Assembly (NCBI GenBank): GCA_900547465.1
Contig: URHJ01000001.1
Span: 20,341 to 84,340 of the forward strand
DNA length: 64,000 bases
Direction: 5' to 3'
Source: an uncultured Mycoplasmatota bacterium
GTDB lineage: Bacteria > Bacillota_I > Bacilli_A > RF39 > UBA660
Each line of letters opens with the position of its first letter. Positions within the stretch are counted from its first letter, which is position 1. The position numbers and the translations under genes are program-made. This document shows, piece after piece, positions 2,757 through 64,000 of the stretch. The notes beneath the pieces are model-generated. The model was given only the letters and a program-made list of their open reading frames with translations, was not told the origin of the DNA and did no database searches.

Positions 2757-3062
2757 CTAATTAAACATATCTGACAAATCACTTAAATCAATATCTTTTT
2801 CCTCTATTTTAACAGAATCATCGTTATTGATACTTTGTGAAGCTACAGGCTCAACATTACCAACATAACCACTAGATAAATCAGGTTCATCATCTAAAAT
2901 TTCAATAGTTGGCTTTTTATATTCCAAAATATTAACATCATTAGCATTAAGTGTATTAAATGCCTCAACCAACTCAGGAGGAGTATTTTCATCAACAATC
3001 AATCTCCCATTTGCATCTAAATAACGAGCCATATATTGTTTTTGAATCTCATCAAGTTCCAT
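2757..3062 (-). CDS. Small acidic hypothetical protein, last gene of the type VII secretion module
   Basis: 101 aa, strongly acidic, no TM segment. Follows the WXG100 gene with a 17-bp gap on the same strand. Confidence 0.5.
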   Translation of the reverse strand: MELDEIQKQYMARYLDANGRLIVDENTPPELVEAFNTLNANDVNILEYKKPTIEILDDEPDLSSGYVGNVEPVASQSINNDDSVKIEEKDIDLSDLSDMFN

Positions 3063-3079
3063 AACAAATCCCTCTCTTA

Positions 3080-3385
3080 CTAGTGTCTTTTAGATTTTTT
3101 CTTAGAAACTGCTTTTGAAAATGCAAGTTGATTATCCATATTTACTGCATAATTATAAGCAGCCTTATAATCAGCAATATTATTATTATGATTCCTTATT
3201 GCCTTATCAAACCAAGCTTTAGCATCTTCACCATTCCAATATGCTGATGTACCATCACCCATTACAAAAGATTTTAAAGCTCCATTCAATGCTACAATAT
3301 CACTATGTAAATTTCTTAAACGTGTATTTACATTTTTTAATTCAGCTTCCATTTTATTTATTTTTTTAATTCCTACTGTCTCCAT
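3080..3385 (-). CDS. esxA: WXG100-family (EsxA-like) secreted protein
   Basis: 101 aa, predicted helix-turn-helix. A central W-x-G (SAYWNGEDAKAW) sits near residue 51. Adjacent to EssC and YukD-like genes. Confidence 0.7.
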   Translation of the reverse strand: METVGIKKINKMEAELKNVNTRLRNLHSDIVALNGALKSFVMGDGTSAYWNGEDAKAWFDKAIRNHNNNIADYKAAYNYAVNMDNQLAFSKAVSKKKSKRH

Positions 3386-3397
3386 AATATCCCCTTC

Positions 3398-3841
3398 CTA
3401 GTTACCACTAAAGTTTACAGAACTAGAGTCACTTTTTGCATTGGCATTGTAAAATGCAACAAATTCAGGTTGAGTTTGAAGATACTTAAACATAACTTGT
3501 AAAGCTTCTTCATTCTCATCAACATTAAATGCTTCTTCCAATTCTTTTTTTCTGTTTGAAGTATATTTACCTTGGTTTATACAATTTTCAGATAATTTTT
3601 CCAAATTAGAAATCCATCTTTTCCCAGAAACACATTTTGATATCTCCTTAAAATCTCCACCAAGTCTTTGAAATCTCTTAGTAACATTATCATAATTATC
3701 AGAAATAGTTCTTTTTAGCTTATTAGCCATATCGTTATTAACCATATCTGAATCAACACTAACATATTGATTAGTTAAATTTGGGTCAAGTTTTAAAGCT
3801 TCTATATCTTGAACACCAGGCGCAGTTATTATACTTGCCAT
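3398..3841 (-). CDS. Hypothetical soluble protein in the type VII secretion module (possible substrate or chaperone)
   Basis: 147 aa, no TM, no recognisable motif. Gene context only. Confidence 0.45.
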   Translation of the reverse strand: MASIITAPGVQDIEALKLDPNLTNQYVSVDSDMVNNDMANKLKRTISDNYDNVTKRFQRLGGDFKEISKCVSGKRWISNLEKLSENCINQGKYTSNRKKELEEAFNVDENEEALQVMFKYLQTQPEFVAFYNANAKSDSSSVNFSGN

Positions 3842-4512: not shown

Positions 4513-7500
4513 CTAAGATATAGTTGGTGTTTTCAACAATTCTGCTTCAGAATCCTTTATAACAACTGCATTATCAGCTGCCACATCTCCAGAGTTTCTA
4601 AAATATGATGTTTCAAAAAATTCTTGAGAATCAAAATTTTGTCCAATCCATATACCATTTTGATTATCAATTATATTAGATAAACTACCATCAAGTAAGT
4701 TAGGAATATCTCTAAATGAATCATAAATAATATATTTAAACGAATTATTTTTAGTTTCTAAAATCAAATCATCAATTAGTTTAACTTCGTTATTATTACT
4801 CTTTTGTTCATTTAAATACCTAGATAAATTTGAATATCCAATAATCACTATAGTAAACAATTTTTCATTTGCATTCTGATTAAATTTCTGAACATTATTT
4901 AATAAAATTGGTACTATTTTTGTAAAGCTGGAATCATAATATTTTATATTTTCAGTGTGTGATATAGAAATTTCAGAAGCATTTAAAACAATAACATTAT
5001 TATTTTGACATTTAGCAAGAATGTCTATAAAATGATTAAAAAATTTACTAACTTGTTTCTCTTCACTACCGGACATCAAATTAACTATATTAGAAAAATT
5101 ATAATATCCAATCTGTGCAGTAGTTGTATTAATTCCAATTGGTACATTATCTAATGTAGTAATATCTTTTTCAATATATTTAATGCTCAATCTTCTAGGA
5201 ACAGTCGGAATTTCAGGAGCTTTTACTTTCATCACTTCATTCAACTTACCAATAACAAAATCAAGATTTTTCTTTTCATCACTTTCCGAAAATATTAAAG
5301 CCGTTTGGAATTCCATACATTGTTCATTAACCAAAACTAAACCTCGTCCTGGATTCTTTGATGGAATCTTTTTTGTTGAAAAGATATAACTATATTCTGA
5401 AGAATCATTCATATTCAATGCTATATTTTGTGGGAAATTATTACTAACAGATACAGTTAATGCACCTGTTTCAACAGATGATACAATAAAGTTTATTCCA
5501 TATTTGCTACAACTTCTTGTAGTTGATTCAAATAACTCATCATAACAATCAGAAAATTCCTCTCTAAACACTTCCATACCATAAATAAATACTAAAATAT
5601 TAGGAAAATGTCTAGTACCATTCTTCATATCATAACTAAAATCTCCACCATTTTTAGAATAGAATTCTTTTCTTCTATCAATTTCACTTGATACTAACCA
5701 AAATAAATAATTTACTTTTCTTTTATCATTAATTCCAATAACTTCTCCCACCTGAGGTGCACCAGAAAATTTTCTAAGTTTTTCCGCACCCAAGTCGATA
5801 ACATAAACATTTACTTCATTTACATTATAATTAATTATTGTTGAATAAAGCATAGTTGACATCAACGTACACTTTCCCATACCAGAAGAACCTACAATAA
5901 AAGTATTTCCCACATCAGATAAAGACATAGTAACAAAACCCTGCTTTTGATTTTCTGGATCATCATACTCACCAATAATTGCCTCTATTACAGATTTACT
6001 TGGTGTAAATTTATATTTCTGAACAATATCACTATAATAAATAAGATTAGGAACATTATCTAACCACAATTGATTATACTTATAATTATTTTCGTTTGCT
6101 ATTTTAACAATATAGTTCAAAATATTATTTAATTCTTCACCATATTTTACCTTAGTATTATCAACATCATTTTTTTGAACTGCAGATTTATAAACACTAC
6201 CCATATTATTTATAAAAGATATAGAATTATCAAGTTTAGACATAGCCTTTGATGTAGGAACATATTGTACACCTGAATAACCAGATTGTCCTAACACAAA
6301 GTACTGATCATAACCTACTAATAAATAAAATCTACCAGATTCCTTAATTGATGCAGCATCAGGTCTCATAATCATTTCATTACTATCTTCCGCAGTCTGA
6401 ACTTTACAACACACTTTAAATTTTGAGTTAGACCAAATTTGATCATTAACAACTCCACTAGGTTTTTGTGTTGCCAGAATTAAATGTATACCTAAAGAAC
6501 GACCTATACGAGCCGCACTAACAAGTTCGTCCATAAAATCAGGTTGTTGCTCCTTTAATTCAGCAAACTCATCACAAATAATAAATAAATGAGACATTGG
6601 ATCTTTTAAAGTTCCTTCTCTAACTAACTGTTGATATTTATATATATCAATACTACCAGTATTTAATTCTTCTTTTGCTTCGTTAAACTTTCTTTGTCTA
6701 CGTTGTAATTCACTTTTTATTGAAACCAGAGTTCTATTCATTTCGGATTTATCTAAGTTAGTAATTGTTCCCACTAAATGAGGTAACTTTATACCAGTTT
6801 TACGATTTTCAAATGCTCCAGCAAGTCCACCACCTTTATAATCAATTAAAACAAATTGAACTTCATCAGGATTATAATTAACAGCAAGAGACAAAATATA
6901 TGTAATTATAAATTCAGACTTACCACTACCTGTCATTCCAGCTACTAAACCATGGGGACCATGAAATTTTTCATGTAAATCTAAATATAATGTATTACCA
7001 TTTGGATCTACACCAACCGGAGCAGCCAATGAATTAATAATATCAGAAGTATTCCAACGATTAACTATATTCAATTGATCCAAATTACCAACATTATACA
7101 TTTCCAAGAATCCAAGTTTATCAGGTAAAGTTCCACTTGAATTGGAACTGATCTTTATAGGAATATTTGATAATGTATAAATACAACGATCATAATCAAT
7201 AGTTGAATCTAAAAGCTGAGGAATAAATTTTAACGTTCCGTCTTCTTCCATTTCTGATTCAAAATATGAAGCTTCATTATTTGTGTAAGAAATAAATTTT
7301 TTACATCCCATAGGAATTTCTATCATTTTATCACTAAACATAATTAAACTAAAATTAGCATTATGATTACCCAACATAACCTTTTCGATGATGGACAAAT
7401 TTTTATACTTATCTATAGCATCAGAAACAATCAAAAAATAAGATGTCATAACATTATTACTGATTTTTTCTTTATTAGAATCGTATATTTTACATAATTC

Positions 7501-9060
7501 ACTTGATAAATTTTCAGCCTCTCTAGAATTAGAAGCAAAGAATCTCAAACTTCTATCATTACTCCAACAATGATTCAAATTTTTAATTTTATTTAACCCA
7601 GAAAATTCATCTGTTAAAATAACAAGCTTCAAATCTGAATAGTCGTGTAATGTAATAAGTTGAAGCAAGATTGATCCCAAAAACATATCATAATCACCAT
7701 TATTGTTTATAAATGCGATTGAATTATTTTTTAAGTTAATCGTAAAGGGAGCATCATCAATATATTTATATTTATCAATTAAGGCATCTATTTTATCTAA
7801 TAATTTATCATTATCTATTATCAACTCAGGTCTTTCATATTTAAAATCAACATTAGATTTTATTTTACCAACCCCAAGTTTAACATTTAAAAAAAAGTTT
7901 GAACTAGAATTTCTTGAAAACAAATATGCAGTCTTTTTTAAGATAGCATCTTGACATTCATTTAATGATAAATTATTAAATTCTAACACCGTTCTTTGCT
8001 CTGTAACATACTCAATCAATTTCTTCTCTTTTCTTTTTAAATAACGCTTATATGTTACTACTCTAACCTTTTCGGTTATAAATGATCTTATTTTGTTTAC
8101 AAAAGATTCAACCACAGGCCAGATAATACCAGTAAATAACATCACAACACACATCACAAGTGAAGTCACTAAAGATTCTTTATCAGACCTTCCTGATTTA
8201 TAACCTTGTATTGAATAATAAGTTGATACCACAGAGGTAATACTCATCAATACCGTAGGAACCATTTGAAAAATAAGCCCTTCTGTTTCTTTTTTTTCTT
8301 TAGTACCTGGTGCTACAAAATTAAAACTATAAGTTTTTTCTTTTTTTCTAAATACAGTTGATTTAGAAAAATAATCCTTTTTTTCATAGAAATCTTTTAC
8401 ATTTTCATTTGAACTAATATTATTTATAGCATATTGACACTTATTTTCTGAAACAACTTTAGAATTATAGCAATTAATAGTAGTTTTACCAGGAAAAAAT
8501 ATTAACTTATTTGCTAGAATCACTATCCTAACTCCCATAACAAAAATATTATCAAAACTATATAAAAAACAATTGTTATTTCTTTTTTTATTAACATAAA
8601 TTGGAACATCAGTATTTAAGTTGTTGAGTTGCCATACATTTGAATTATAAGTAAGTTCCAATTGTTGCTGTGAAATATTTGGACTAGTCAAAATTAAATC
8701 ACATTTATTATCACTTCCTAATATTAACTTAGTTTCTTCCTGAACAGTATAAAAACAATAGTTAGGATCATCACCTGGAACTACGTACAACAATATATTT
8801 TCCTTATTTAAATAATTTAAATTATAAAACATATATTCATCAACAAAAGTTGACTGAACCGCATCAGAGCCAACAAAAACCGATACCTCTTCATTAGAAT
8901 TAATAATCCACTTTCCATCTTTTTCCTGAATATTTGTTAAATTTCTAACATGACCTTCATCATCAATATCTGTTAATACATAATTACCAGAAACTTCTTT
9001 AGGAAGCCTAAATGTATAAATTTTATCGCTATGTAATATATATATTAACATATCAGTCAC
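4513..9060 (-). CDS. essC: Type VII secretion FtsK/SpoIIIE-family ATPase EssC/YukB
   Basis: 1515 aa. N-terminal FHA-like region, a TM segment near residues 290-330, then repeated P-loop ATPase domains (Walker A motifs GMTGSGKSE and GSSGMGKCT). Flanked by YukD-like and WXG100 genes. Confidence 0.85.
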   Translation of the reverse strand: MTDMLIYILHSDKIYTFRLPKEVSGNYVLTDIDDEGHVRNLTNIQEKDGKWIINSNEEVSVFVGSDAVQSTFVDEYMFYNLNYLNKENILLYVVPGDDPNYCFYTVQEETKLILGSDNKCDLILTSPNISQQQLELTYNSNVWQLNNLNTDVPIYVNKKRNNNCFLYSFDNIFVMGVRIVILANKLIFFPGKTTINCYNSKVVSENKCQYAINNISSNENVKDFYEKKDYFSKSTVFRKKEKTYSFNFVAPGTKEKKETEGLIFQMVPTVLMSITSVVSTYYSIQGYKSGRSDKESLVTSLVMCVVMLFTGIIWPVVESFVNKIRSFITEKVRVVTYKRYLKRKEKKLIEYVTEQRTVLEFNNLSLNECQDAILKKTAYLFSRNSSSNFFLNVKLGVGKIKSNVDFKYERPELIIDNDKLLDKIDALIDKYKYIDDAPFTINLKNNSIAFINNNGDYDMFLGSILLQLITLHDYSDLKLVILTDEFSGLNKIKNLNHCWSNDRSLRFFASNSREAENLSSELCKIYDSNKEKISNNVMTSYFLIVSDAIDKYKNLSIIEKVMLGNHNANFSLIMFSDKMIEIPMGCKKFISYTNNEASYFESEMEEDGTLKFIPQLLDSTIDYDRCIYTLSNIPIKISSNSSGTLPDKLGFLEMYNVGNLDQLNIVNRWNTSDIINSLAAPVGVDPNGNTLYLDLHEKFHGPHGLVAGMTGSGKSEFIITYILSLAVNYNPDEVQFVLIDYKGGGLAGAFENRKTGIKLPHLVGTITNLDKSEMNRTLVSIKSELQRRQRKFNEAKEELNTGSIDIYKYQQLVREGTLKDPMSHLFIICDEFAELKEQQPDFMDELVSAARIGRSLGIHLILATQKPSGVVNDQIWSNSKFKVCCKVQTAEDSNEMIMRPDAASIKESGRFYLLVGYDQYFVLGQSGYSGVQYVPTSKAMSKLDNSISFINNMGSVYKSAVQKNDVDNTKVKYGEELNNILNYIVKIANENNYKYNQLWLDNVPNLIYYSDIVQKYKFTPSKSVIEAIIGEYDDPENQKQGFVTMSLSDVGNTFIVGSSGMGKCTLMSTMLYSTIINYNVNEVNVYVIDLGAEKLRKFSGAPQVGEVIGINDKRKVNYLFWLVSSEIDRRKEFYSKNGGDFSYDMKNGTRHFPNILVFIYGMEVFREEFSDCYDELFESTTRSCSKYGINFIVSSVETGALTVSVSNNFPQNIALNMNDSSEYSYIFSTKKIPSKNPGRGLVLVNEQCMEFQTALIFSESDEKKNLDFVIGKLNEVMKVKAPEIPTVPRRLSIKYIEKDITTLDNVPIGINTTTAQIGYYNFSNIVNLMSGSEEKQVSKFFNHFIDILAKCQNNNVIVLNASEISISHTENIKYYDSSFTKIVPILLNNVQKFNQNANEKLFTIVIIGYSNLSRYLNEQKSNNNEVKLIDDLILETKNNSFKYIIYDSFRDIPNLLDGSLSNIIDNQNGIWIGQNFDSQEFFETSYFRNSGDVAADNAVVIKDSEAELLKTPTIS

Positions 9061-46942: not shown

Positions 46943-47828
46943 AAATCACCTCCATTAATTCGATAATAAAATTATGAAACCAAAGCTTACTATTTAAATT
47001 AAATTGAACATTTTCCTTATTTTTTTCAATCACAGACAAAAGATTAGATAACAAAACAGGTTCAAAATCAAGATTAAAGTCTAAAAACTTATCACTATTT
47101 ACCAAATTAGAACGAAGTATTTTAAATAACAATGTTTCTAAAATTTCAAGATTTTTAAATATTGCATTTTTATCATAAAAAATATTTTTCAAATAATAGT
47201 CAAATTCTATCAATAAATTATCAGGAGACTTCAATCCATTAACAAATTGAACAATGAACTCATCATATTGAGTATCATCATCTTCTTCTACATCAAGAGA
47301 TAAAATCTGACATCGTGATACCACAGTTTCTAAAACACGAAAGCGATTGCTGGCAACTAAAATAGCAATAATATTTTCTGGAGGCTCCTCTAAAAATTTT
47401 AAAATTGTATTTGCTGAAGAATCGTTCAAAGATTCAGCAGAATCTATAACATAAATCAATTTATTATCTAACATAGACTTTTTAGAATATTGATCTTCCA
47501 ATTGCAATAACTGTTCCTTTTTAATCCAATACCCATCTGGATTAATATACTTTAAATCAGGATAATTATCAGTATCAATAGCATGAGAAATAAATTCTTT
47601 AGAATCTTCATGATCAACATATAAAATCATTTTAATAAATTCCTTTAACACAGGCATATAGTCATTATTACCATTAGTTTCTAATAAGTATGCATGAGAA
47701 ATTTTATGTTCATCATTTATAGAATGATTGACAAATTCAAAAAACTTAGATTGTTTTTTTATTTTTTCATTCATACCATCACCTCTTAATAAGCTACAAA
47801 AGAATAATTTTAAATAATAATAACGCAA
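46932..47828 (-). CDS. holB: DNA polymerase III delta' subunit
   Basis: 298 aa, degenerate AAA+ clamp-loader fold (..HAYLLE..). The true start is probably MNEKIKK. Confidence 0.7.
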   Translation of the reverse strand: MRYYYLKLFFCSLLRGDGMNEKIKKQSKFFEFVNHSINDEHKISHAYLLETNGNNDYMPVLKEFIKMILYVDHEDSKEFISHAIDTDNYPDLKYINPDGYWIKKEQLLQLEDQYSKKSMLDNKLIYVIDSAESLNDSSANTILKFLEEPPENIIAILVASNRFRVLETVVSRCQILSLDVEEDDDTQYDEFIVQFVNGLKSPDNLLIEFDYYLKNIFYDKNAIFKNLEILETLLFKILRSNLVNSDKFLDFNLDFEPVLLSNLLSVIEKNKENVQFNLNSKLWFHNFIIELMEVIYDV

Positions 47829-47988
47829 CTAAACAAGGAACTCCTAAAAAAGCAACAGAAGTAACAGTAACCACATTAATAGGTATTACCATATTAAATT
47901 GACTAGCAATCAAATTATAACCATACAAAATAATATAACTCAATACTATTCTTTTCAATAAATTTAAAATTTTATTCATACCGTTCAC
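47794..47988 (-). CDS. bofA: Pro-sigma-K processing regulator BofA-like small membrane protein
   Basis: 64 aa. C-terminal half ..MVIPINVVTVTSVAFLGVPCLVALLLFKIIL aligns with B. subtilis BofA (..IHVPINLVTTAISGILGIPGIAALVVIKQFI). Position after recR. Confidence 0.6.
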   Translation of the reverse strand: MNGMNKILNLLKRIVLSYIILYGYNLIASQFNMVIPINVVTVTSVAFLGVPCLVALLLFKIILL

Positions 47989-48930: not shown

Positions 48931-50661
48931 CTAATTAATTTCTACAATATCACCAAAGTCAGCAAAATTTGACTTTGACTCCTGCACCTCTGGAGTATCA
49001 ACTATAGTTTTCGCCTCAACAACAGGTTCTTCTTCTATTTTATATTTATTTCCGCTTTTTGTAAATTCTATATATTTCTTTTTCTCATTTTCCCATTCTT
49101 CATCAGTAATAAATACTATTTTTTTATCAGTTGTAGTAATTTTACTATATACTTCCATAATAGATTCTAAATTATTTAAATTTTGATCAACAACTGACTG
49201 ATATTCATAACTAATAATCATACCATTTTCACTAGAAGCACGTAACGTTCCATTTAGAATCTCTGAAACTATATAACCAATTTTTTGATCAAAAACATAA
49301 TCATTTAAACCATTAATTTTCGCTAAATCAGCATTTTTTTCTACCTTGGAAGCAAGAGCTAATACATTGTGAACCCTAACACTCATCAATTTATGTAAAT
49401 AATCTAAATCAGATTCTACAGCATTAATACCAATAGAAACATTTTTTTCTTCATTAACCGATTCATCAACATTGATTGAATCATCAATACTATTAGGTTC
49501 ATCATTCACTTTATCAACACTATCAGACCCACCATCCACCTCAGCAATAGAATTTTCATTAACACTAGTACTACTATTTCCCAAAGATTCATCATTACTA
49601 ATTATTTCCCGGGAAATAATTTTATTACTATTACCTATTGAATTAATATAATCCAATAATAATATTTCAACATATATATAAGGTTTAGAAGCCTTCTTTA
49701 ATTCGAACATATTTTCGTTTAATTTTACTAAAAGTTTTTCAGTCCTATAGACATCGATATTAGTACCAGACAAATAGTAATCGACAATTTTATCTTTAAG
49801 AAAGATTAGAAATTGATTCATAATTTCCACAATATTTTTACCTGAAGCATAAAATTTATCTAACTTTAATATCATTTGTTTTATATCATTAGATATAATA
49901 ATCTTATAAAAATCTTCCAAATCAGACTTTGAAATCATATCATTTATCTCATAAAAGTCTTCAACAGTTATCTTACCATTTTTATAAGAAGATAACTTAT
50001 CCAATGTACTTAGTGAATCTCTCAGACCACCATCAGAATAAATAGAAATTTGTTTTAATGTTTCATCATCTATTTCTATCTTTTCAAGATCTGATATTTC
50101 ACGTAATCTATTAACATTACAATCATCAGAAATACGTTTAAATGAAAAGCATTGACATCTAGATATAATAGTACTAGAAACTTTCTGAGGATCAGTAGTA
50201 GCAAGTATAAAAATAACATGCTTAGGAGGTTCCTCTAAAGTCTTTAAAAGAGCATTAAAAGCACCAGCTGTCAACATATGAACCTCGTCTATAATATATA
50301 CTTTATACTTAAGACTATTAGGAACCAAATTAACTTTACTCTTTATTTCTCTTATTTCATCAACACCATTATTAGAAGCAGCATCAATTTCAATAATATC
50401 AACACATTCTTTTTCAGCAGAAGCAATACAACTATCACACTTTTCACAGGGATTACCATTAGAGTTATTAGTACAATTAACCGCCCTAGCAAATATTTTA
50501 GCAACAGTAGTTTTTCCAATACCACGTGGACCAAAAAACATATAAGCATGGCTAATTTTATCATTCAAAATAGAGTTTTTTAATGTTTCTATAATATACT
50601 TTTGATCAACCACATCATCAAATGATTTTGGTCTATATTTTCTATATAAAGCTTGATACAT
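48931..50661 (-). CDS. dnaX: DNA polymerase III subunits gamma/tau
   Basis: 576 aa. Walker A GPRGIGKTT, zinc module CEKCDSC. Confidence 0.9.
   Translation of the reverse strand: MYQALYRKYRPKSFDDVVDQKYIIETLKNSILNDKISHAYMFFGPRGIGKTTVAKIFARAVNCTNNSNGNPCEKCDSCIASAEKECVDIIEIDAASNNGVDEIREIKSKVNLVPNSLKYKVYIIDEVHMLTAGAFNALLKTLEEPPKHVIFILATTDPQKVSSTIISRCQCFSFKRISDDCNVNRLREISDLEKIEIDDETLKQISIYSDGGLRDSLSTLDKLSSYKNGKITVEDFYEINDMISKSDLEDFYKIIISNDIKQMILKLDKFYASGKNIVEIMNQFLIFLKDKIVDYYLSGTNIDVYRTEKLLVKLNENMFELKKASKPYIYVEILLLDYINSIGNSNKIISREIISNDESLGNSSTSVNENSIAEVDGGSDSVDKVNDEPNSIDDSINVDESVNEEKNVSIGINAVESDLDYLHKLMSVRVHNVLALASKVEKNADLAKINGLNDYVFDQKIGYIVSEILNGTLRASSENGMIISYEYQSVVDQNLNNLESIMEVYSKITTTDKKIVFITDEEWENEKKKYIEFTKSGNKYKIEEEPVVEAKTIVDTPEVQESKSNFADFGDIVEIN
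49603..49618. promoter_or_regulatory. Noc-binding-site (NBS) palindrome inside dnaX
   Basis: TATTTCCCGGGAAATA, a perfect 16-bp palindrome, extended to the 20-bp palindrome ATTATTTCCCGGGAAATAAT at 49601-49620. Confidence 0.5.
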
Positions 50662-50708: not shown

Positions 50709-51170
50709 TCATTTTTCAACAACTTTATTTCTATTTTTTTGAAAAAAACTTTCCACAAGTTCAATATAGTTATAATTATCATTAACTTTTTCCACAACAA
50801 CGCCTTTATTTAAGTCATTACTACAAAAGATCCCCTTAGAAATACTATTATTATAATTATCCACAATATAATAAACTTTACTAATTCTAGACTGTTTTAT
50901 AGCACTTGCACACATAGGGCAAGGAAACATAGTTACATACATTTCACATTCATTTAAACGCCAATTTTTCAATTTCGCACAAGTTTTTTTGATAGCAATA
51001 ATTTCTGCATGATAAATTGCACACTTCTTTTTTTCTTTTATATTAAAACTTCTAGCAATTATCCTTCCCTTATAAACAATAACACACCCAACAGGAATTT
51101 CATCTCTAAGATATGCCTTTTTTGCCTCATTTATTGCAATATTCATATATTTATCATTCATTTTCTTCAC
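50709..51170 (-). CDS. tadA: tRNA-specific adenosine deaminase TadA
   Basis: 153 aa. HAE and PCxxC zinc motifs (HAEIIAI, PCPMCA). Confidence 0.85.
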   Translation of the reverse strand: MKKMNDKYMNIAINEAKKAYLRDEIPVGCVIVYKGRIIARSFNIKEKKKCAIYHAEIIAIKKTCAKLKNWRLNECEMYVTMFPCPMCASAIKQSRISKVYYIVDNYNNSISKGIFCSNDLNKGVVVEKVNDNYNYIELVESFFQKNRNKVVEK

Positions 51171-51327
51171 AACCTAACATTTTTTTATAAAAAAAGATGC
51201 ACATGAGAGTTGATTGTTAAAGCTGCTATCTTCCGATTCTGACTTGATTCCAATACACTCATTGCATCTATTACATTTTATTACATTTTTAATCATAATT
51301 CAATAAAAACATTCAAAACATTTTATA

Positions 51328-51343
51328 TGTTTCACGTGAAACA
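51328..51343. promoter_or_regulatory. parS site 1 (perfect consensus)
   Basis: TGTTTCACGTGAAACA. The flanking bases extend it to the 18-bp palindrome ATGTTTCACGTGAAACAT. Confidence 0.7.
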
Positions 51344-51413
51344 TCAAATATTATTAAATTTAATAAAAAAAAAGATTAATTTTAGTTAAAAAAAAGCAAA
51401 TTCATTTTTATCT

Positions 51414-51422
51414 TGTGGAAAA
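51414..51422. promoter_or_regulatory. DnaA-box-like 9-mer next to parS site 2
   Basis: TGTGGAAAA, the complement of TTTTCCACA, which is the box variant also found at the dnaA-rpmH origin. It lies 5 bp upstream of parS site 2. Confidence 0.45.
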
Positions 51423-51427
51423 AACAA

Positions 51428-51443
51428 TGTTTCACGTGAAACA
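51428..51443. promoter_or_regulatory. parS site 2 (perfect)
   Basis: TGTTTCACGTGAAACA, exactly 100 bp from site 1. Confidence 0.7.
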
Positions 51444-51803
51444 TTTAAATAATTTTTTAAATCAATATCACTTTATAATCCGTAAAAATAACAAATAAAT
51501 TAATAAATAATAACCAATCACTATAATTCAAGAAAATAAAGTGTTTATTTTATAATAAATACAAATAATAAAATAAATAGTTAAATCTCATAATATAAAA
51601 CACATCAGATTGTTAATAAACAACTTCTGTTTATAAATTTAACAATTATTTTTCACATTTTAATGTAAAAATAGATAAATACAATTTAAAATATAAAATA
51701 AATGAACTACCATATTTTCAATTATTGCAAATAATAATAATTCAAAAAAAGTAGTAAATAAAGATTAAAAATTCTATAAAGGATTATTTTTACTCAACAA
51801 AAA

Positions 51804-51819
51804 AGTTTCACGTGAAACA
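51804..51819. promoter_or_regulatory. parS site 3 (15/16)
   Basis: AGTTTCACGTGAAACA. Confidence 0.6.
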
Positions 51820-51882
51820 TAATACATTTATATTATATACTCACCATCATATCATAAATAAATACAATATATTTTTTAACCT

Positions 51883-51891
51883 TGTGGATAT
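51883..51891. promoter_or_regulatory. DnaA-box-like 9-mer next to parS site 4
   Basis: TGTGGATAT, 8/9 to the complement of TTATCCACA. It lies 5 bp upstream of parS site 4. Confidence 0.45.
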
Positions 51892-51896
51892 TTTAA

Positions 51897-51912
51897 TGTT
51901 TCACGTGAAACA
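51897..51912. promoter_or_regulatory. parS site 4 (perfect)
   Basis: TGTTTCACGTGAAACA. Confidence 0.7.
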
Positions 51913-52101
51913 TTAAAACACCTATATTATAATCGTACTTCTTTTTCAATATAGTAAAAACAAATAAATTTATTAACATTTTCTGTGTAAAATTCCATTA
52001 CTTAAATAACTTCACTGTTACACTATTGTATATATCAATATAACAAGTGAATTATTTTTATTTTAACAAAATTACTTAAAAATAATCATTGTTACAAATA
52101 A

Positions 52102-52117
52102 AGTTTCACGTGAAACA
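52102..52117. promoter_or_regulatory. parS site 5 (15/16)
   Basis: AGTTTCACGTGAAACA. Confidence 0.6.
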
Positions 52118-52157
52118 TACAGGTAAAACTATTTTAATGATGTATATTTTTTTAGAT

Positions 52158-52166
52158 TGTGGAAAA
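52158..52166. promoter_or_regulatory. DnaA-box-like 9-mer next to parS site 6
   Basis: TGTGGAAAA, 3 bp upstream of parS site 6. Confidence 0.45.
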
Positions 52167-52169
52167 CAA

Positions 52170-52185
52170 TGTTTCACGTGAAACA
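52170..52185. promoter_or_regulatory. parS site 6 (perfect)
   Basis: TGTTTCACGTGAAACA. Confidence 0.7.
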
Positions 52186-52273
52186 TAAAAACTTTATCTC
52201 AGATTATAACATAATACATTACTTAAGTTTTTCTATCCTTTTCTAAATTTTCTTACAAAATAACTATAAAGAT

Positions 52274-52289
52274 TATTTCCCGGGAAATA
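52274..52289. promoter_or_regulatory. Noc-binding-site (NBS) palindrome
   Basis: TATTTCCCGGGAAATA (perfect), within the 22-bp palindrome GATTATTTCCCGGGAAATAATC at 52271-52292. Confidence 0.55.
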
Positions 52290-52368
52290 ATCTGCCTATT
52301 TTTTTTATTTGTATAAATAAAATTTCCACAAGAAATATTTCCCAAACAATACTATATTTACTCTTAAT

Positions 52369-52384
52369 TATTTCCCAGGAAATA
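52369..52384. promoter_or_regulatory. NBS-like palindrome (15/16)
   Basis: TATTTCCCAGGAAATA, about 25 bp past the gyrA stop codon. Confidence 0.4.
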
Positions 52385-52409
52385 ATTGCAAAAAAAAAGA
52401 AGCTTTTAA

Positions 52410-54875
52410 TTACACTTCTTTTTCCACAATTTCAGATTCACTTTCATTATATTCTGTCAAATTTTCTTTTTCCACAACTGCAACAGTAGATACTTTTTGA
52501 TCATCTTTTAAATTAATTAATCTAACACCTTGAGTAGCACGTTTTAAAGTTGAAATTTGTTCCAAAGGCATTTTCATAATAATACCACTATTGGTAATAA
52601 TCATAACATCATAATTATCTTCAACATCAATACATTTTAAAGCAACCATCATACCATTTTTATCAGTTACATTTAAAGCTTTGACACCCTTACTACCACG
52701 ATGTGTTAATCTATATTCATCAATAAATGTTTGTTTACCATAACCATTTTCAGTAACAATTAAAATCTTTTGACCAGGTTTAATAACCTCTGCACCAACA
52801 ACATAACTATCACCTAAATCAATACCTTTTACACCAGATGCAGTTCTACCCATAGATCTAATATCATTTTCATCAAATCTTACCATTCTACCATTAGAAG
52901 CACCTATAACAATTTCATCTTTTCCACAGGTTTTTCTAACACTAATTAATTCATCATTTTCCTTTAAACTTATAGCGATCTTTCCACTTTTTCTAATATT
53001 GTCAAATTCAGATAACTCAGTTCTCTTAACAACACCATTTTTAGTAGCAAACATTAAGTATTTAGCTGTTTCTTCCTTAGAATCTAGACATATAATCGAA
53101 CTAATGTTCTCATCTTTATCCAACTCTAATAAATTAATAATTGGTAATCCCTTAGATTGCCTACTAAATTCAGGTATTTCATAACCTTTTAATCTATATA
53201 CCCTACCCTTATTAGAGAAGAATAATATATAATCATGTGTCTTCATAGGTATTAAATGTTCAACGAAATCTTCTTCATTTGTAGCCATACCTTTAACACC
53301 AACACCACCACGATTTTGAGTTCTATAAGTATCAGATTTCAATCTCTTAATATAACCCTTATTTGTTAATGTAACAATAATATCTTCAACAGGTATCAAA
53401 GACTCATCTTCTATATACTCAATAGCAGTCATATCAATAGCAGTTCTACGTTCATCACCATACTTATTTTTGATTTCTGTCATTTCATCCTTAATGATAG
53501 CTAAAACCTTCTCTTCACTAGCTAAAATTGCCTTTAACTCCTCTATTTCAGCCAATAAATCCTTTAATTCATTTTCTATTTTATCTCTTTCCAAACCAGT
53601 CAATCTTCTAAGTTTCATTTCCAAAATTGCCTGAGATTGTTTTTCAGATAAATTATACTTACTCATAAGGCCTTTCATAGCCTCTTCATCACTTTTTGAT
53701 CCTCTAATCAATTGGATAATAGCATCAATATGATCTAAAGCTATCTTTAATCCCTCTAAAATATGAGCTCTAGCCTCATCTTTATTTAAATCAAATCTAG
53801 TACGTCTTACAATTATTTCCTTTTGGTAATCAACATACTTAGAAATAATATCCTTTAAACCTAAAGTTTTTGGAACTCCTTGATCAAGCATCAAGAAAAT
53901 AATTCCATAATTAGTTTGAAAAGAAGTATGTTTATATAAATTATTCAACACTACTTGTGGATTAGCATCCTTTTTTAAAGTAATAGTAATCTTAACACCA
54001 TCTTTTAAATCAGTATGATAATCAGATATACCATCAATTACTTTATTATGAACCAATTCAGCAACCTTATTTTTCAAATCCAAAGTATTAACACCATAAG
54101 GAACCTCATCAATTATGATATAATGTTTACCCTTTTCTTCTTCTATTCGAGCCTTACTTCTAATAGTTATAGACCCACGACCAGTTTCATAAGCCTTCTT
54201 TATACCACTATTACCTAATATCGTTGCCCCTGTTGGAAAATCAGGTCCTTTAATATATTGCATTAAACCATCTACATCTATATCTGGGTTATCAATATAA
54301 GCAATACAACCGTCAATAACTTCACCCAAATTATGAGGAGGAATATTTGTAGCCATACCAACTGCAATACCCATTGTACCATTTACCAAAATATTAGGAA
54401 ATCTTGAAGGAAGTATAGTTGGTTCCTTCTCTGTTTCATCAAAGTTAGGTATAAAATCTACAGTATCTTTATTAATATTTCTAAGTAATTCCAAAGCAAT
54501 TTTTGATAAACGAGATTCAGTATAACGCATTGCTGCAGCACCATATCCCTCAATATTACCAAAATTACCATGTCCATCAACAAGCATATTTCTATAAGAA
54601 AAATCTTGGGCCATACGAACCATAGCCTCATAAATACTTGAATCACCATGAGGATGATATTTACCCATAACATCTCCGACAATTCTTGCACTCTTTTTAT
54701 GAGGTTTATCAGGAGTATAACCTGACTCATACATAGAATAAAGAATACGTCTATGAACCGGTTTTAAACCATCCCTAAGATCAGGTAATGCACGAGCAAC
54801 TATAACACTCATAGAATACTCTAAAAAAGAATCTCTTACTTCATTTACAATATTATTTTTTTCTAATCTATCCAC
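52410..54875 (-). CDS. gyrA: DNA gyrase subunit A
   Basis: 821 aa. Active-site region ..AAAMRYTE.., C-terminal beta-pinwheel repeats. gyrB-gyrA order. Confidence 0.95.
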
Positions 54876-59889: not shown

Positions 59890-61293
59890 TTACATTTTAT
59901 TAACAACTCCTGTTCCTATATCATTTTTGAGCTTTTCAATAATTTTTGCCAAATCAGGATTAACTTTTATTTCCTGTTCTATTTTTTCAACTGAATGCAT
60001 TACCGTAGAATGGTCTTTTCCACCAAATTCTGTTCCTATCTTGGGAAATGACTCATTTGTCATTAATCTACATAAATACATTGCAATTTGCCTAGGAAAT
60101 GATATATTAGAACTTCTCTTTTTACTTCTAATATCTTCAACAGTAATCTGAAAATACTCTGAAACTATCTTTTGTATTCTATGAACATCGTTTTTTTCAG
60201 AAATTCCTTTACTGATAAAGTCTTTCAAGGCCTCTATTGCTAAATCAAGTGTGATATCTGCCCCACCCATTATAGTTGAATAAGCAATTAATCTTGTAAT
60301 AGACCCCTCTAATTGTCTCACATCTGTACCAATATTGGAAGCAATATATTCAATGACATCTTCAGGAATTTCCTTTTCAAAGTTACCAGCAATAATTTTT
60401 CTTCTAATAATTTGTGTTCTAAGATTAAAATCAGGAGGAAAAATATTAACCGTTAATCCCCAACAAAACCTTGTTCTTAAACGATCTTCTAACAATTTTA
60501 AATCATCAGGTGACCTATCAGAAGATATAATAATTTGTTTACTATCATTATATAAAGTATTGAAAGTATGGAAAAATTCTTGTTGTGTTTGAGTAGCTCC
60601 ACCAAGAAATTGAATATCATCAATAATCAAAACATCAACGTTACGATACTTATTTTTAAAGAAGTCAACATAATTAAAGTTAACACCCTTCTCATCTCTC
60701 TTATTTATACCAACAAAATCTTGAATAAATTGATCACTCGTAACATATAAAACTTTTTGAGTACTATTATGTGTAATATAATTCCCAATCGCATGCATTA
60801 AGTGAGTTTTACCTAACCCACTATTACCATATATAAATAAAGGATTATACATATTACCAGGATTTTCCGCAACAGATAAAGCTGCAGCATGAGCAAATTT
60901 ATTACTATTTCCAACAATAAAGTTCTCAAACGTATATTTACTTTTTAAATTAGATTTGAAATTATTAGGGGGAACCCCTTTATTTTCAACCATTTCATTA
61001 CCTGGTACATGGATTTTCTTATCATCAGCATCTTCATATTTAGATATTTCATCACTTAGTACAAATTCTAAATCAAAGTTGGTACCAGTAATACTATTCA
61101 TTTTTTCCTTTATTAATAAGGAATATTTCTCAGCAAGGTGTTTCTTATGAATAGGCATAGGAACAATAATTATAGCCTTTCCATCATTTAACTTAAATAG
61201 TTTAGTATCACTAAACCAAGTATCATAGGCAAGACTGGAAAGTTCATCTTTTATTTGTGCTAAAAAATTGGACCATAAAACATCCACATTCAT
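59890..61293 (-). CDS. dnaA: Chromosomal replication initiator DnaA
   Basis: 467 aa. Walker A GNSGLGKTHL, C-terminal DNA-binding helix-turn-helix (..DHSTVMHS..). Confidence 0.95.
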   Translation of the reverse strand: MNVDVLWSNFLAQIKDELSSLAYDTWFSDTKLFKLNDGKAIIIVPMPIHKKHLAEKYSLLIKEKMNSITGTNFDLEFVLSDEISKYEDADDKKIHVPGNEMVENKGVPPNNFKSNLKSKYTFENFIVGNSNKFAHAAALSVAENPGNMYNPLFIYGNSGLGKTHLMHAIGNYITHNSTQKVLYVTSDQFIQDFVGINKRDEKGVNFNYVDFFKNKYRNVDVLIIDDIQFLGGATQTQQEFFHTFNTLYNDSKQIIISSDRSPDDLKLLEDRLRTRFCWGLTVNIFPPDFNLRTQIIRRKIIAGNFEKEIPEDVIEYIASNIGTDVRQLEGSITRLIAYSTIMGGADITLDLAIEALKDFISKGISEKNDVHRIQKIVSEYFQITVEDIRSKKRSSNISFPRQIAMYLCRLMTNESFPKIGTEFGGKDHSTVMHSVEKIEQEIKVNPDLAKIIEKLKNDIGTGVVNKM

Positions 61294-61390: not shown

Positions 61391-61462
61391 CTTTCCACAA
61401 AGTTATCAACAAATAAATGTGAATAAAATAAAGGTATTTTTATATTTTCCACATTTTCCACA
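61391..61462. promoter_or_regulatory. oriC DnaA-box cluster between dnaA and rpmH, at the strand-switch point
   Basis: CTTTCCACA (61391-61399), TTATCAACA (61403-61411), and two abutting perfect TTTTCCACA boxes (61445-61453, 61454-61462). Also an inverted repeat GGACAA-a-TTGTCC at 61531-61543. All genes to the left are minus-strand and all to the right are plus-strand. Confidence 0.6.
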
Positions 61463-63708: not shown

Positions 63709-64000
63709 ATGAATGATACAATAGCTGCAATTTCAACATCATTGGGAATAGGAGCAATATCAATTGTTAGAATGAGTGGTACTGATGCCATAAAAATAGC
63801 TAACAAAATCTTTTCAAAAGATCTAGAAAATGTAAAATCCCATACTATAAATTATGGATTTATAAAAGAAAATGGCGAAGTGATAGATGAAGTACTAATT
63901 TCAGTAATGAAAGCTCCACATACTTATACAACAGAAAATATAATAGAAATAAATTGTCATGGTGGTATCACAACTACAAATAAAGTTCTAGAAACACTTT
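63709..64000 (+). CDS. mnmE: tRNA modification GTPase MnmE, N-terminal fragment; continues past the window end
   Basis: [24 protein letters not shown], a typical MnmE N-terminus. Position after jag. Confidence 0.85.

Follow-up and report, generated by a model that had tools for sequence, protein, structure and literature searches.

Noc-binding-site palindromes beside the parS array of an RF39 bacterium, and a Noc-type ParB paralog without the N-terminal membrane helix as their predicted reader

Which protein reads Noc-binding sites (NBS) that stand next to the parS sites of the same chromosome, and does their presence there mean nucleoid occlusion? Noc, a duplicate of ParB, is the textbook case of a changed DNA specificity combined with a new job, the tethering of chromosome to membrane to block division. 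The question is raised by a 64,000-nucleotide stretch of DNA, called the window below, from an uncultured Mycoplasmatota bacterium of the order RF39 (GenBank assembly GCA_900547465.1, contig URHJ01000001.1, positions 20,341 to 84,340). A first-pass annotation of its sequence had marked three NBS palindromes, one in dnaX and two near a parS array. Our analysis leads us to predict that these palindromes are probably loading sites for a Noc-derived cytidine triphosphate (CTP) clamp that acts at the origin and centromere.

NBS palindromes at the edge of the parS array

The 16-mer had been identified as the published Noc-binding sequence, differing from parS at two positions of each half-site. Both statements agree with the published consensus sequences, which are TATTTCCC-GGGAAATA for NBS and TGTTTCAC-GTGAAACA for parS (PMC7383237): positions 1 and 6 of the half-site are A and C in NBS, and G and A in parS. 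The 16-bp NBS palindrome TATTTCCCGGGAAATA, with its 14-bp core ATTTCCCGGGAAAT, was found three times in the window, twice without mismatch and once as a 15/16 match. These copies, the isolated half-sites near them, and the features that frame them are as follows (palindromic sites are given without strand).

49600-49621: NBS copy 1, the perfect 16-mer TATTTCCCGGGAAATA at 49603-49618 in the 22-bp palindrome AATTATTTCCCGGGAAATAATT, within dnaX
52271-52292: NBS copy 2, the perfect 16-mer TATTTCCCGGGAAATA at 52274-52289 in the 22-bp palindrome GATTATTTCCCGGGAAATAATC
52366-52387: NBS copy 3, the 15/16 match TATTTCCCAGGAAATA at 52369-52384 within AATTATTTCCCAGGAAATAATT
49575-49582, plus strand: isolated NBS half-site TATTTCCC in dnaX, 21 bp from copy 1
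52336-52343, plus strand: isolated NBS half-site TATTTCCC between copies 2 and 3
51328-52185: array of six parS sites at 51328, 51428, 51804, 51897, 52102 and 52170, four of them perfect TGTTTCACGTGAAACA and two 15/16
48931-50661, minus strand: dnaX, 576 residues, host of NBS copy 1 (Pfam DNA_pol3_delta2 and AAA)
51186-51278, minus strand: small signal recognition particle (SRP) RNA gene, the border of the parS/NBS gap on the dnaX side (RF00169, 52.8 bits against a gathering score of 40)
52410-54875, minus strand: gyrA, 821 residues (Pfam DNA_topoisoIV and DNA_gyraseA_C)
59890-61293, minus strand: dnaA

All three copies were recovered at the positions first assigned to them, and so was the 22-bp palindrome around copy 2. 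Two details of the first-pass annotation needed correction: the palindrome around the dnaX copy, described as 20 bp long, measures 22 bp, and of the two half-site starts the one at 52336 was right, whereas the one placed at 49574 lies at 49575.

The NBS search covered the 64-kb window with up to two mismatches, and 100 dinucleotide-preserving shuffles served as the null. Three matches were found against 0.01 expected, and none of the 100 shuffles reached three; allowing three mismatches added no NBS in the window. The mononucleotide expectation for TTCCCGGGAA in the window is 0.006. The annotation had proposed to give up its claim if the sequence were as frequent as base composition predicts, and the observed count exceeds that frequency widely. 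The hexamer CCCGGG occurs twice in the whole window, each time within an NBS copy. A longer core, ATTATTTCCCNGGAAATAAT, is common to all three copies. The central CCCAGG/CCTGGG variant of copy 3 is also seen in about 10% of the NBS copies in a logo built from related species.

The parS array, whose six sites compare with 0.08 expected in the window, sits in a 1.2-kb gene-free gap that runs from the SRP RNA gene to gyrA. The gyrA end of this gap carries NBS copies 2 and 3, which follow the gyrA stop codon at about 120 bp and 26 bp, respectively; a distance of 104 bp separates copy 2 from the last parS. Copy 1 is 2.7 kb from the gap and encodes ..NK-IISREII-SN.. in a low-complexity part of DnaX. 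The three palindromes are not parS sites themselves: positions 1 and 6 of the half-site are G and A in parS (TGTTTCACGTGAAACA) but A and C in the palindromes, and the true parS sites are separate from them. The scaffold shared by both site types, TNTTTCNCGNGAAANA, occurs in the window as two pure NBS and four pure parS.

The window is the origin region, on the reverse strand, of a genome with 27% GC. The origin was placed at about 59.8-61.6 kb on account of several DnaA boxes (59808, 59870, 61403-61462) and a turn of the GC skew near 62 kb; therefore the NBS lie about 7.5-12 kb from oriC. As a separate observation, half of the parS sites in the array (three) are accompanied, at a distance of 4-8 bp, by DnaA-box-like 9-mers (TTTTCCACA or ATATCCACA), which lie on the minus strand at 51414-51422, 51883-51891 and 52158-52166. 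A coupling of DnaA box and parS as a general feature was rejected, since in relatives a box lies no more than 30 bp away from just 15 of 133 parS, where about 10 would be expected.

Copies 2 and 3 come shortly after the gyrA stop codon, a location that could also be explained if the palindromes were RNA hairpins on the gyrA transcript, for instance a terminator or a stability element. Each of the two could form a stem of 9-10 bp, and a T-rich stretch follows copy 2 on both strands. The stems are weak, however (-5.4 to -9.7 kcal/mol), and in three cases out of four the fold does not improve on shuffled sequences (z -0.06 to -1.6). A terminator scan of 51100-52500 found none, and this together with the weak folds led us to reject an intrinsic terminator, for which a GC-rich stem-loop with a T run immediately behind it on the transcribed strand would be expected. 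Moreover, one copy is within the dnaX coding sequence, the primary sequence is invariant across species without compensatory changes in the stem, and relatives repeat the element in tandem with parS. We consider an RNA hairpin barely credible as the function of these palindromes.

Conservation and distribution of the sites

Same-species strains were found with the gyrA protein as query, and all eight (8/8) retain the three NBS and the six parS. In two of these strains an 8-bp indel and many substitutions abut copy 2, while its 20-bp core is intact. More distant relatives were collected by a DnaA scan of species-representative genomes, which gave 80 loci of uncultured gut Bacilli; the best DnaA identity among them was 88%, and the representative of the species studied here is not included. 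The loci are labelled Bacilli, Tenericutes, Candidatus Faecimonas, Mycoplasma sp. CAG:877 and Clostridium sp. CAG:417. Candidatus Faecimonas corresponds to the GTDB genus CAG-877 of the order RF39 (PMC8035907), and the named relatives belong to this order. Five GTDB records with an RF39-type dnaA locus (L016, L052, L071, L081 and L084) are titled Muribaculaceae, Methanobrevibacter or Acidaminococcus; they are probably contaminated bins or mislabelled metagenome-assembled genomes.

Among the 50 loci that reach at least 200 bp past gyrA, the post-gyrA gap contains perfect NBS in 47, parS in 45 and both in 42. This gap holds 102 NBS in 66 kb, compared with a single NBS in the remaining 1.195 Mb of the 80 related-species loci. 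In these species the distance between an NBS and its closest parS has a median of 59 bp, and the NBS logo widens to a 24-bp palindrome, AAATTATTTCCCGGGAAATAATTT. Of the 35 loci that extend as far as dnaX, 10 have an NBS within or beyond this gene. A 126-bp repeat with one parS and one NBS per unit is present in at least 5.3 tandem copies in the complete 1.5-Mb genome OZ006970.1. NBS beside parS is thus a conserved arrangement of the whole lineage and not an incidental neighbourhood. Half-sites are concentrated around full sites: in the relatives their density is 0.77 per kb within 100 bp of a full NBS and 0.052 per kb elsewhere, a difference of about 15-fold. The isolated half-sites could be either auxiliary sites or decayed copies.

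The main rival to an origin-based function is canonical nucleoid occlusion. By this reading the reader is an ordinary Noc that uses a membrane element other than the N-terminal helix, and the sites near the origin are the best-matching subset of a degenerate, genome-wide set. In B. subtilis, NBS are indeed degenerate, and about 70 of them are distributed over most of the chromosome at about one per 60 kb, with none near the terminus (PMC4331003). At this spacing, a sparse scatter would be hard to detect in the DNA of this species that can be read, which is about 84 kb (the window and 10 kb on each side). In these ~84 kb no other NBS or parS was found with up to three mismatches; NBS occur only at 49.6-52.4 kb, and the other ~81 kb carry none, which argues against a genome-wide set.

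An independent sample, metagenome contigs scanned with the extended 20-mer as seed, gave at least 233 NBS sites in at least 119 stretches. Among the matches listed, about 90% of the sites are in origin-proximal contexts: the gyrA-tadA gap, dnaX, recF, jag-mnmE, mnmE-mnmG, and the vicinity of noc/parB. At least 18 sites in these metagenome loci are inside dnaX. Among the same matches, 24 NBS had no recognisable context; they include 8 in short parS+NBS arrays, 3 on high-GC contigs and 8 at polA-fpg. The 23 contigs of at least 100 kb (4.74 Mb in all) have their exact 20-mers, among the matches listed, within one span of no more than 26 kb per contig, whereas the density of B. subtilis would give about 79 separate places in the same 4.74 Mb. 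This also speaks against canonical occlusion, which in addition offers no rationale for tandem units of parS and NBS.

A few sites farther out favour canonical occlusion. In several metagenome contigs, NBS recur on the upstream side of polA and in the polA-fpg interval, and in the 71-kb contig ODHZ01000312.1 the polA-fpg locus is about 20 kb past the dnaX region. Their positions are:

L100: 7782
L136: 1989
L157: 1946, 2182 and 4885
L193: 9356
L195: 5296
L201: 1183

A set of sites dispersed over most of the chromosome and excluded from the terminus, as in B. subtilis, was not seen, and degenerate sites may still be scattered elsewhere. With a 20-mer seed and contigs as the material, the restriction of NBS to the origin region is well supported, not proven.

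The Noc-type paralog, ParB and the origin region

NBS and parS side by side had led the first-pass annotation to expect two genes in this organism, one for ParB and one for a Noc-type paralog, the latter typically beside gidB/soj-spo0J. The Jag protein of the window was used as a query to obtain human-gut metagenome contigs of the same organism, which reach 10 kb past the window. The DNA beyond the window encodes, in order, mnmE, a glutamine amidotransferase, mnmG, rsmG, a 470-residue protein with ParB_N and HTH_ParB domains, parA, and a 299-residue ParB. The predicted pair is therefore present in the predicted place, as rsmG(gidB)-paralog-parA-parB, and the order is identical in related species. 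The amidotransferase gene (Peptidase_C26/GATase) is inserted between mnmE and mnmG in a jag-mnmE-mnmG-rsmG block that is conserved otherwise.

L001:15361-16773, about 4.4 kb beyond position 64000 of the window: Noc-type paralog gene, 470 residues (Pfam ParB_N and HTH_ParB), about 17 kb from the NBS sites
L001:12028-12699: Peptidase_C26/GATase gene between mnmE and mnmG

Among solved structures, the paralog matches Noc best (209 bits for Geobacillus, 197 bits for B. subtilis) and Spo0J less well (175 bits), while the 299-residue ParB matches B. subtilis Spo0J (224 bits) above Noc (151 bits). The NCBIfam model nucleoid_noc (TIGR04285) gives 293 bits for the paralog and 232 bits for ParB. The paralog has both domains expected of Noc, a ParB-type N-terminal CTP-binding domain, in which the CTP-binding motifs GERRY and ENLQR are kept, and a helix-turn-helix DNA-binding domain. 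At the four published specificity positions (173, 179, 184 and 201), it has Q-K-S-R and ParB has R-M-S-G. According to published work on this specificity, Q173 recognises adenine 1, R201 recognises cytosine 6, and only one of positions 179 and 184 needs to be K (PMC7383237). The residues of the paralog are therefore those of an NBS reader even though its family has S, A or G at position 184. In 32 aligned homologs, Q133, K139, R161, GERRY and ENLQR are invariant, and in each lineage examined the exact published NBS occurs together with a Q/K/R paralog. We infer that a Noc-type paralog exists in this organism because Noc structures match it best and its specificity positions carry the NBS-type Q, K and R.

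These residues also bear on a further possibility, that the reader of the palindromes is ParB, or either of the two paralogs without distinction, or a transcription factor of another kind, with the Noc-type paralog irrelevant to them. NBS and parS do differ at only two positions per half-site, and the palindromes lie within 100 bp of parS. However, ParB proteins that were tested favour parS over NBS and Noc proteins favour NBS over parS (PMC7383237), and the ParB of this organism has the parS-type R173 and G201. The constant company of NBS and a Q/K/R paralog also counts against such a reader. In the relatives, moreover, the shared scaffold TNTTTCNCGNGAAANA occurs as 90 pure NBS and 70 pure parS with no hybrid between them, so that two different readers evidently select two sequences side by side. 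A reader other than the paralog is very improbable.

The paralog differs from Noc at its N-terminus. Its start, MQTNEEVVYLYLDDIIPNRFQPR, is preceded by a good ribosome-binding site and by an in-frame stop 27 nt upstream, and the open reading frame begins 17 residues ahead of PNRFQPR. With this start, the paralog is without the stretch of about 25 residues that bears the amphipathic helix of Noc. The N-terminal amphipathic membrane-targeting sequence of about 10 residues was absent from all 32 aligned homologs (32/32), all of which have the same start point. In Noc this helix is extremely conserved across the homologues examined (PMC4331003), and it is needed for membrane binding and occlusion (PMC4331003; PMC8429893). 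Its absence speaks against canonical occlusion.

A database search revealed a large family of full-length homologs; the best 120 matches are mostly 440-540 residues long and 52-99% identical, with a few shorter forms, and where NCBI names them the label is only 'ParB/RepB/Spo0J family partition protein'. Two alignments of the family, with 22 and 32 members, showed that residues 1-200 are near-invariant and that the region between the DNA-binding and C-terminal domains is variable, except for short conserved motifs: NPLxPNF, KFINFGEI, ADLDSLL, FKFFSPAxEA and EDYFKAPDL..VDLP. AlphaFold2, run on an alignment headed by P0001 (99% identical to the paralog derived from L001), predicted that residues 1-200 are folded (pLDDT, the model's per-residue confidence, 70-85), that residues 200-423 form a disordered linker of about 220 residues, and that residues 425-466 form a helix and two strands (pLDDT 71-83). 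The C-terminal domain has weak similarity to a short Noc-like C-terminal domain (E 0.012) and none to that of ParB.

The linker is the place where a substitute membrane element would be expected if the paralog were an ordinary Noc, and its conserved Phe-rich motifs KFINFGEI and FKFFSPA favour that reading, as do the orthologous gene position and the Noc-type specificity residues. The linker is strongly acidic, however, with 49 D/E and 17 K/R, and a hydrophobic-moment scan of the paralog found no basic amphipathic helix in it; the scan flagged only the helix of the C-terminal domain and helices of the folded domains, so that a membrane-targeting helix moved to another part of the protein is the less likely reading. 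Weighing these points together with the distribution of the sites, we regard canonical nucleoid occlusion as unlikely.

Some lineages have variants of the protein. In some relatives the paralog is short and anchor-less (297 residues, start MDKEVVELYLDDIIPNRFQPR) and lacks the long linker, and a low-GC contig encodes a 269-residue Noc-like protein whose start, MKFPFLQ, is a possible membrane-targeting N-terminus. Therefore, the length of the linker and the N-terminus vary among lineages. Short or variant paralogs were located as follows.

L145: 7710-8618
L147: 2-610
L106: 3936-4862

The remaining genes of the window were annotated as well. In the origin region the order is recR, ybaB, dnaX, tadA, SRP RNA gene, the 1.2-kb gap, gyrA, gyrB, recF, a ComK-like gene, dnaN and dnaA, and beyond dnaA rpmH, rnpA, yidC and jag follow on the opposite strand. 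The ComK-family gene (PF06338; 58063-58503, minus strand) lies between dnaN and recF in a dnaA-dnaN-recF-gyrB-gyrA block that is standard otherwise. A BofA homolog (PF07441; about 47794-47988, minus strand) follows recR. RF39 has been predicted to be a sporulating order (PMC10868615), and the BofA homolog agrees with this prediction. Farther from the origin, a T-box leader (RF00230, 103.6 bits; 39044-39248, minus strand) lies upstream of a 513-residue open reading frame at 37463-39004. Between rplL and rpoB, a 1515-residue protein with one FHA and two FtsK_SpoIIIE domains is encoded at 4513-9060 on the minus strand, and three open reading frames of about 100-150 residues (2757-3841) come after it. 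This protein and the small open reading frames look like an EssC-type module, similar to type VII secretion, in an unusual location.

Possible role of the paralog and related systems

We propose the following course of events for the NBS palindromes as loading sites. A dimer of the paralog would recognise the palindrome as a nucleation step, bind CTP, close into a clamp and slide onto the flanking DNA. Such a mechanism was shown for Noc and ParB, and for the paralog it is suggested by the conserved CTP-binding motifs. In this way the paralog would set up a second nucleoprotein domain on the ~3 kb that are also covered by ParB, at 8-12 kb from oriC, where it may mark or tether the origin and centromere, with the linker motifs recruiting a partner. 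Tethering, organisation and replication control are candidate roles. Without the N-terminal membrane helix, and with sites confined to the origin region, genome-wide nucleoid occlusion is an unlikely function, and as judged from its sequence the paralog most likely does not perform it.

Several points weigh against this proposal. Its basis is sequence and comparative evidence throughout. The paralog falls under the curated cut-off of TIGR04285 (293 against 315), with positions 1-205 of the 255 in the model aligned. Position 184 is S, A or G in its family in place of the near-invariant K of Noc, therefore its affinity or specificity could differ. In the species studied here, the NBS stand at one end of the parS array and are not interleaved with it. 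Some NBS, those at polA-fpg, lie tens of kb from the origin, and the metagenome scan was seeded with the extended 20-mer. Finally, the linker motifs KFINFGEI and FKFFSPA could contain a membrane-binding or division-inhibiting element.

Compared with B. subtilis Noc, the system has the same 16-bp NBS palindrome and the same gene slot, gidB-noc-soj-spo0J. The protein likewise combines an N-terminal CTP-binding domain (GERRx, ENLQR) with a helix-turn-helix and has Q173, K179 and R201. The RF39-type paralog differs in having no N-terminal amphipathic sequence, in S, A or G at 184 where Noc has K, and in the acidic disordered linker of about 220 residues before a small C-terminal domain. It has 470 residues here, and B. 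subtilis Noc has about 283. The paralog also stays below the NCBIfam cut-off, and its sites cluster by parS near oriC in contrast to the ~70 dispersed sites of B. subtilis. By these features, read from sequence and structure prediction, the paralog is a variant of the Noc-NBS system and not a routine instance of it, with predicted Noc-type specificity, no membrane anchor, a long disordered linker and, across the lineage of uncultured gut Bacilli, sites interleaved with parS.

The system also resembles ParB(Spo0J)-parS, in that both have origin-proximal 16-bp palindromes, tandem arrays, the scaffold TNTTTCNCGNGAAANA and a protein of the CTP-clamp type. The two differ at half-site positions 1 and 6 (A/C in NBS, G/A in parS), and in the proteins, Q and R of the paralog correspond to R and G of ParB. 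The N-terminal ParA-interaction peptide, which the true ParB keeps as RRALGRGLEELF, is missing from the paralog.

Precedents for a role at the origin come from other proteins. Noc of S. aureus influences the initiation of replication (PMC5540599), which offers, by analogy only, a precedent for an origin or replication role of the Noc family beyond division-site selection. S. aureus Noc is of canonical length, and no interleaved parS/NBS array has been described for it.

RacA anchors origins during B. subtilis sporulation. The RacA-ram system and RicO of S. aureus (as described in bioRxiv 10.64898/2026.03.06.710092) link the origin to a cellular landmark through origin-concentrated sites, as may be the case here. 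Their protein families and DNA motifs are unrelated to those of the RF39 paralog, for which tethering is a hypothesis.

A more specific proposal, which we put forward tentatively and rate slightly short of an even chance, is that the 'long Noc' of RF39 acts as a further CTP clamp on the centromere, one that goes back to a duplicate of ParB with its specificity changed to NBS. It would lack the membrane-targeting helix and dock a partner through its linker, for instance to tether or regulate the origin, and its sites, interleaved with parS, would have stayed at the origin or become confined to it. Such a protein could be a surviving intermediate on the path from ParB to Noc, or a neofunctionalised Noc with a role new to the family.

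The RF39-type lineage, made up of abundant, uncultured gut bacteria, would thus present the switch in specificity without the membrane anchor and with the sites still by the centromere. This bears on the order in which the properties of Noc evolved, which may have been specificity, then site dispersal, then membrane binding. The system also offers a natural setting in which to study how two closely related CTP clamps share the same piece of DNA or divide it between them. For the annotation of other genomes, it means that neither the name 'Noc' nor the presence of NBS alone implies nucleoid occlusion.

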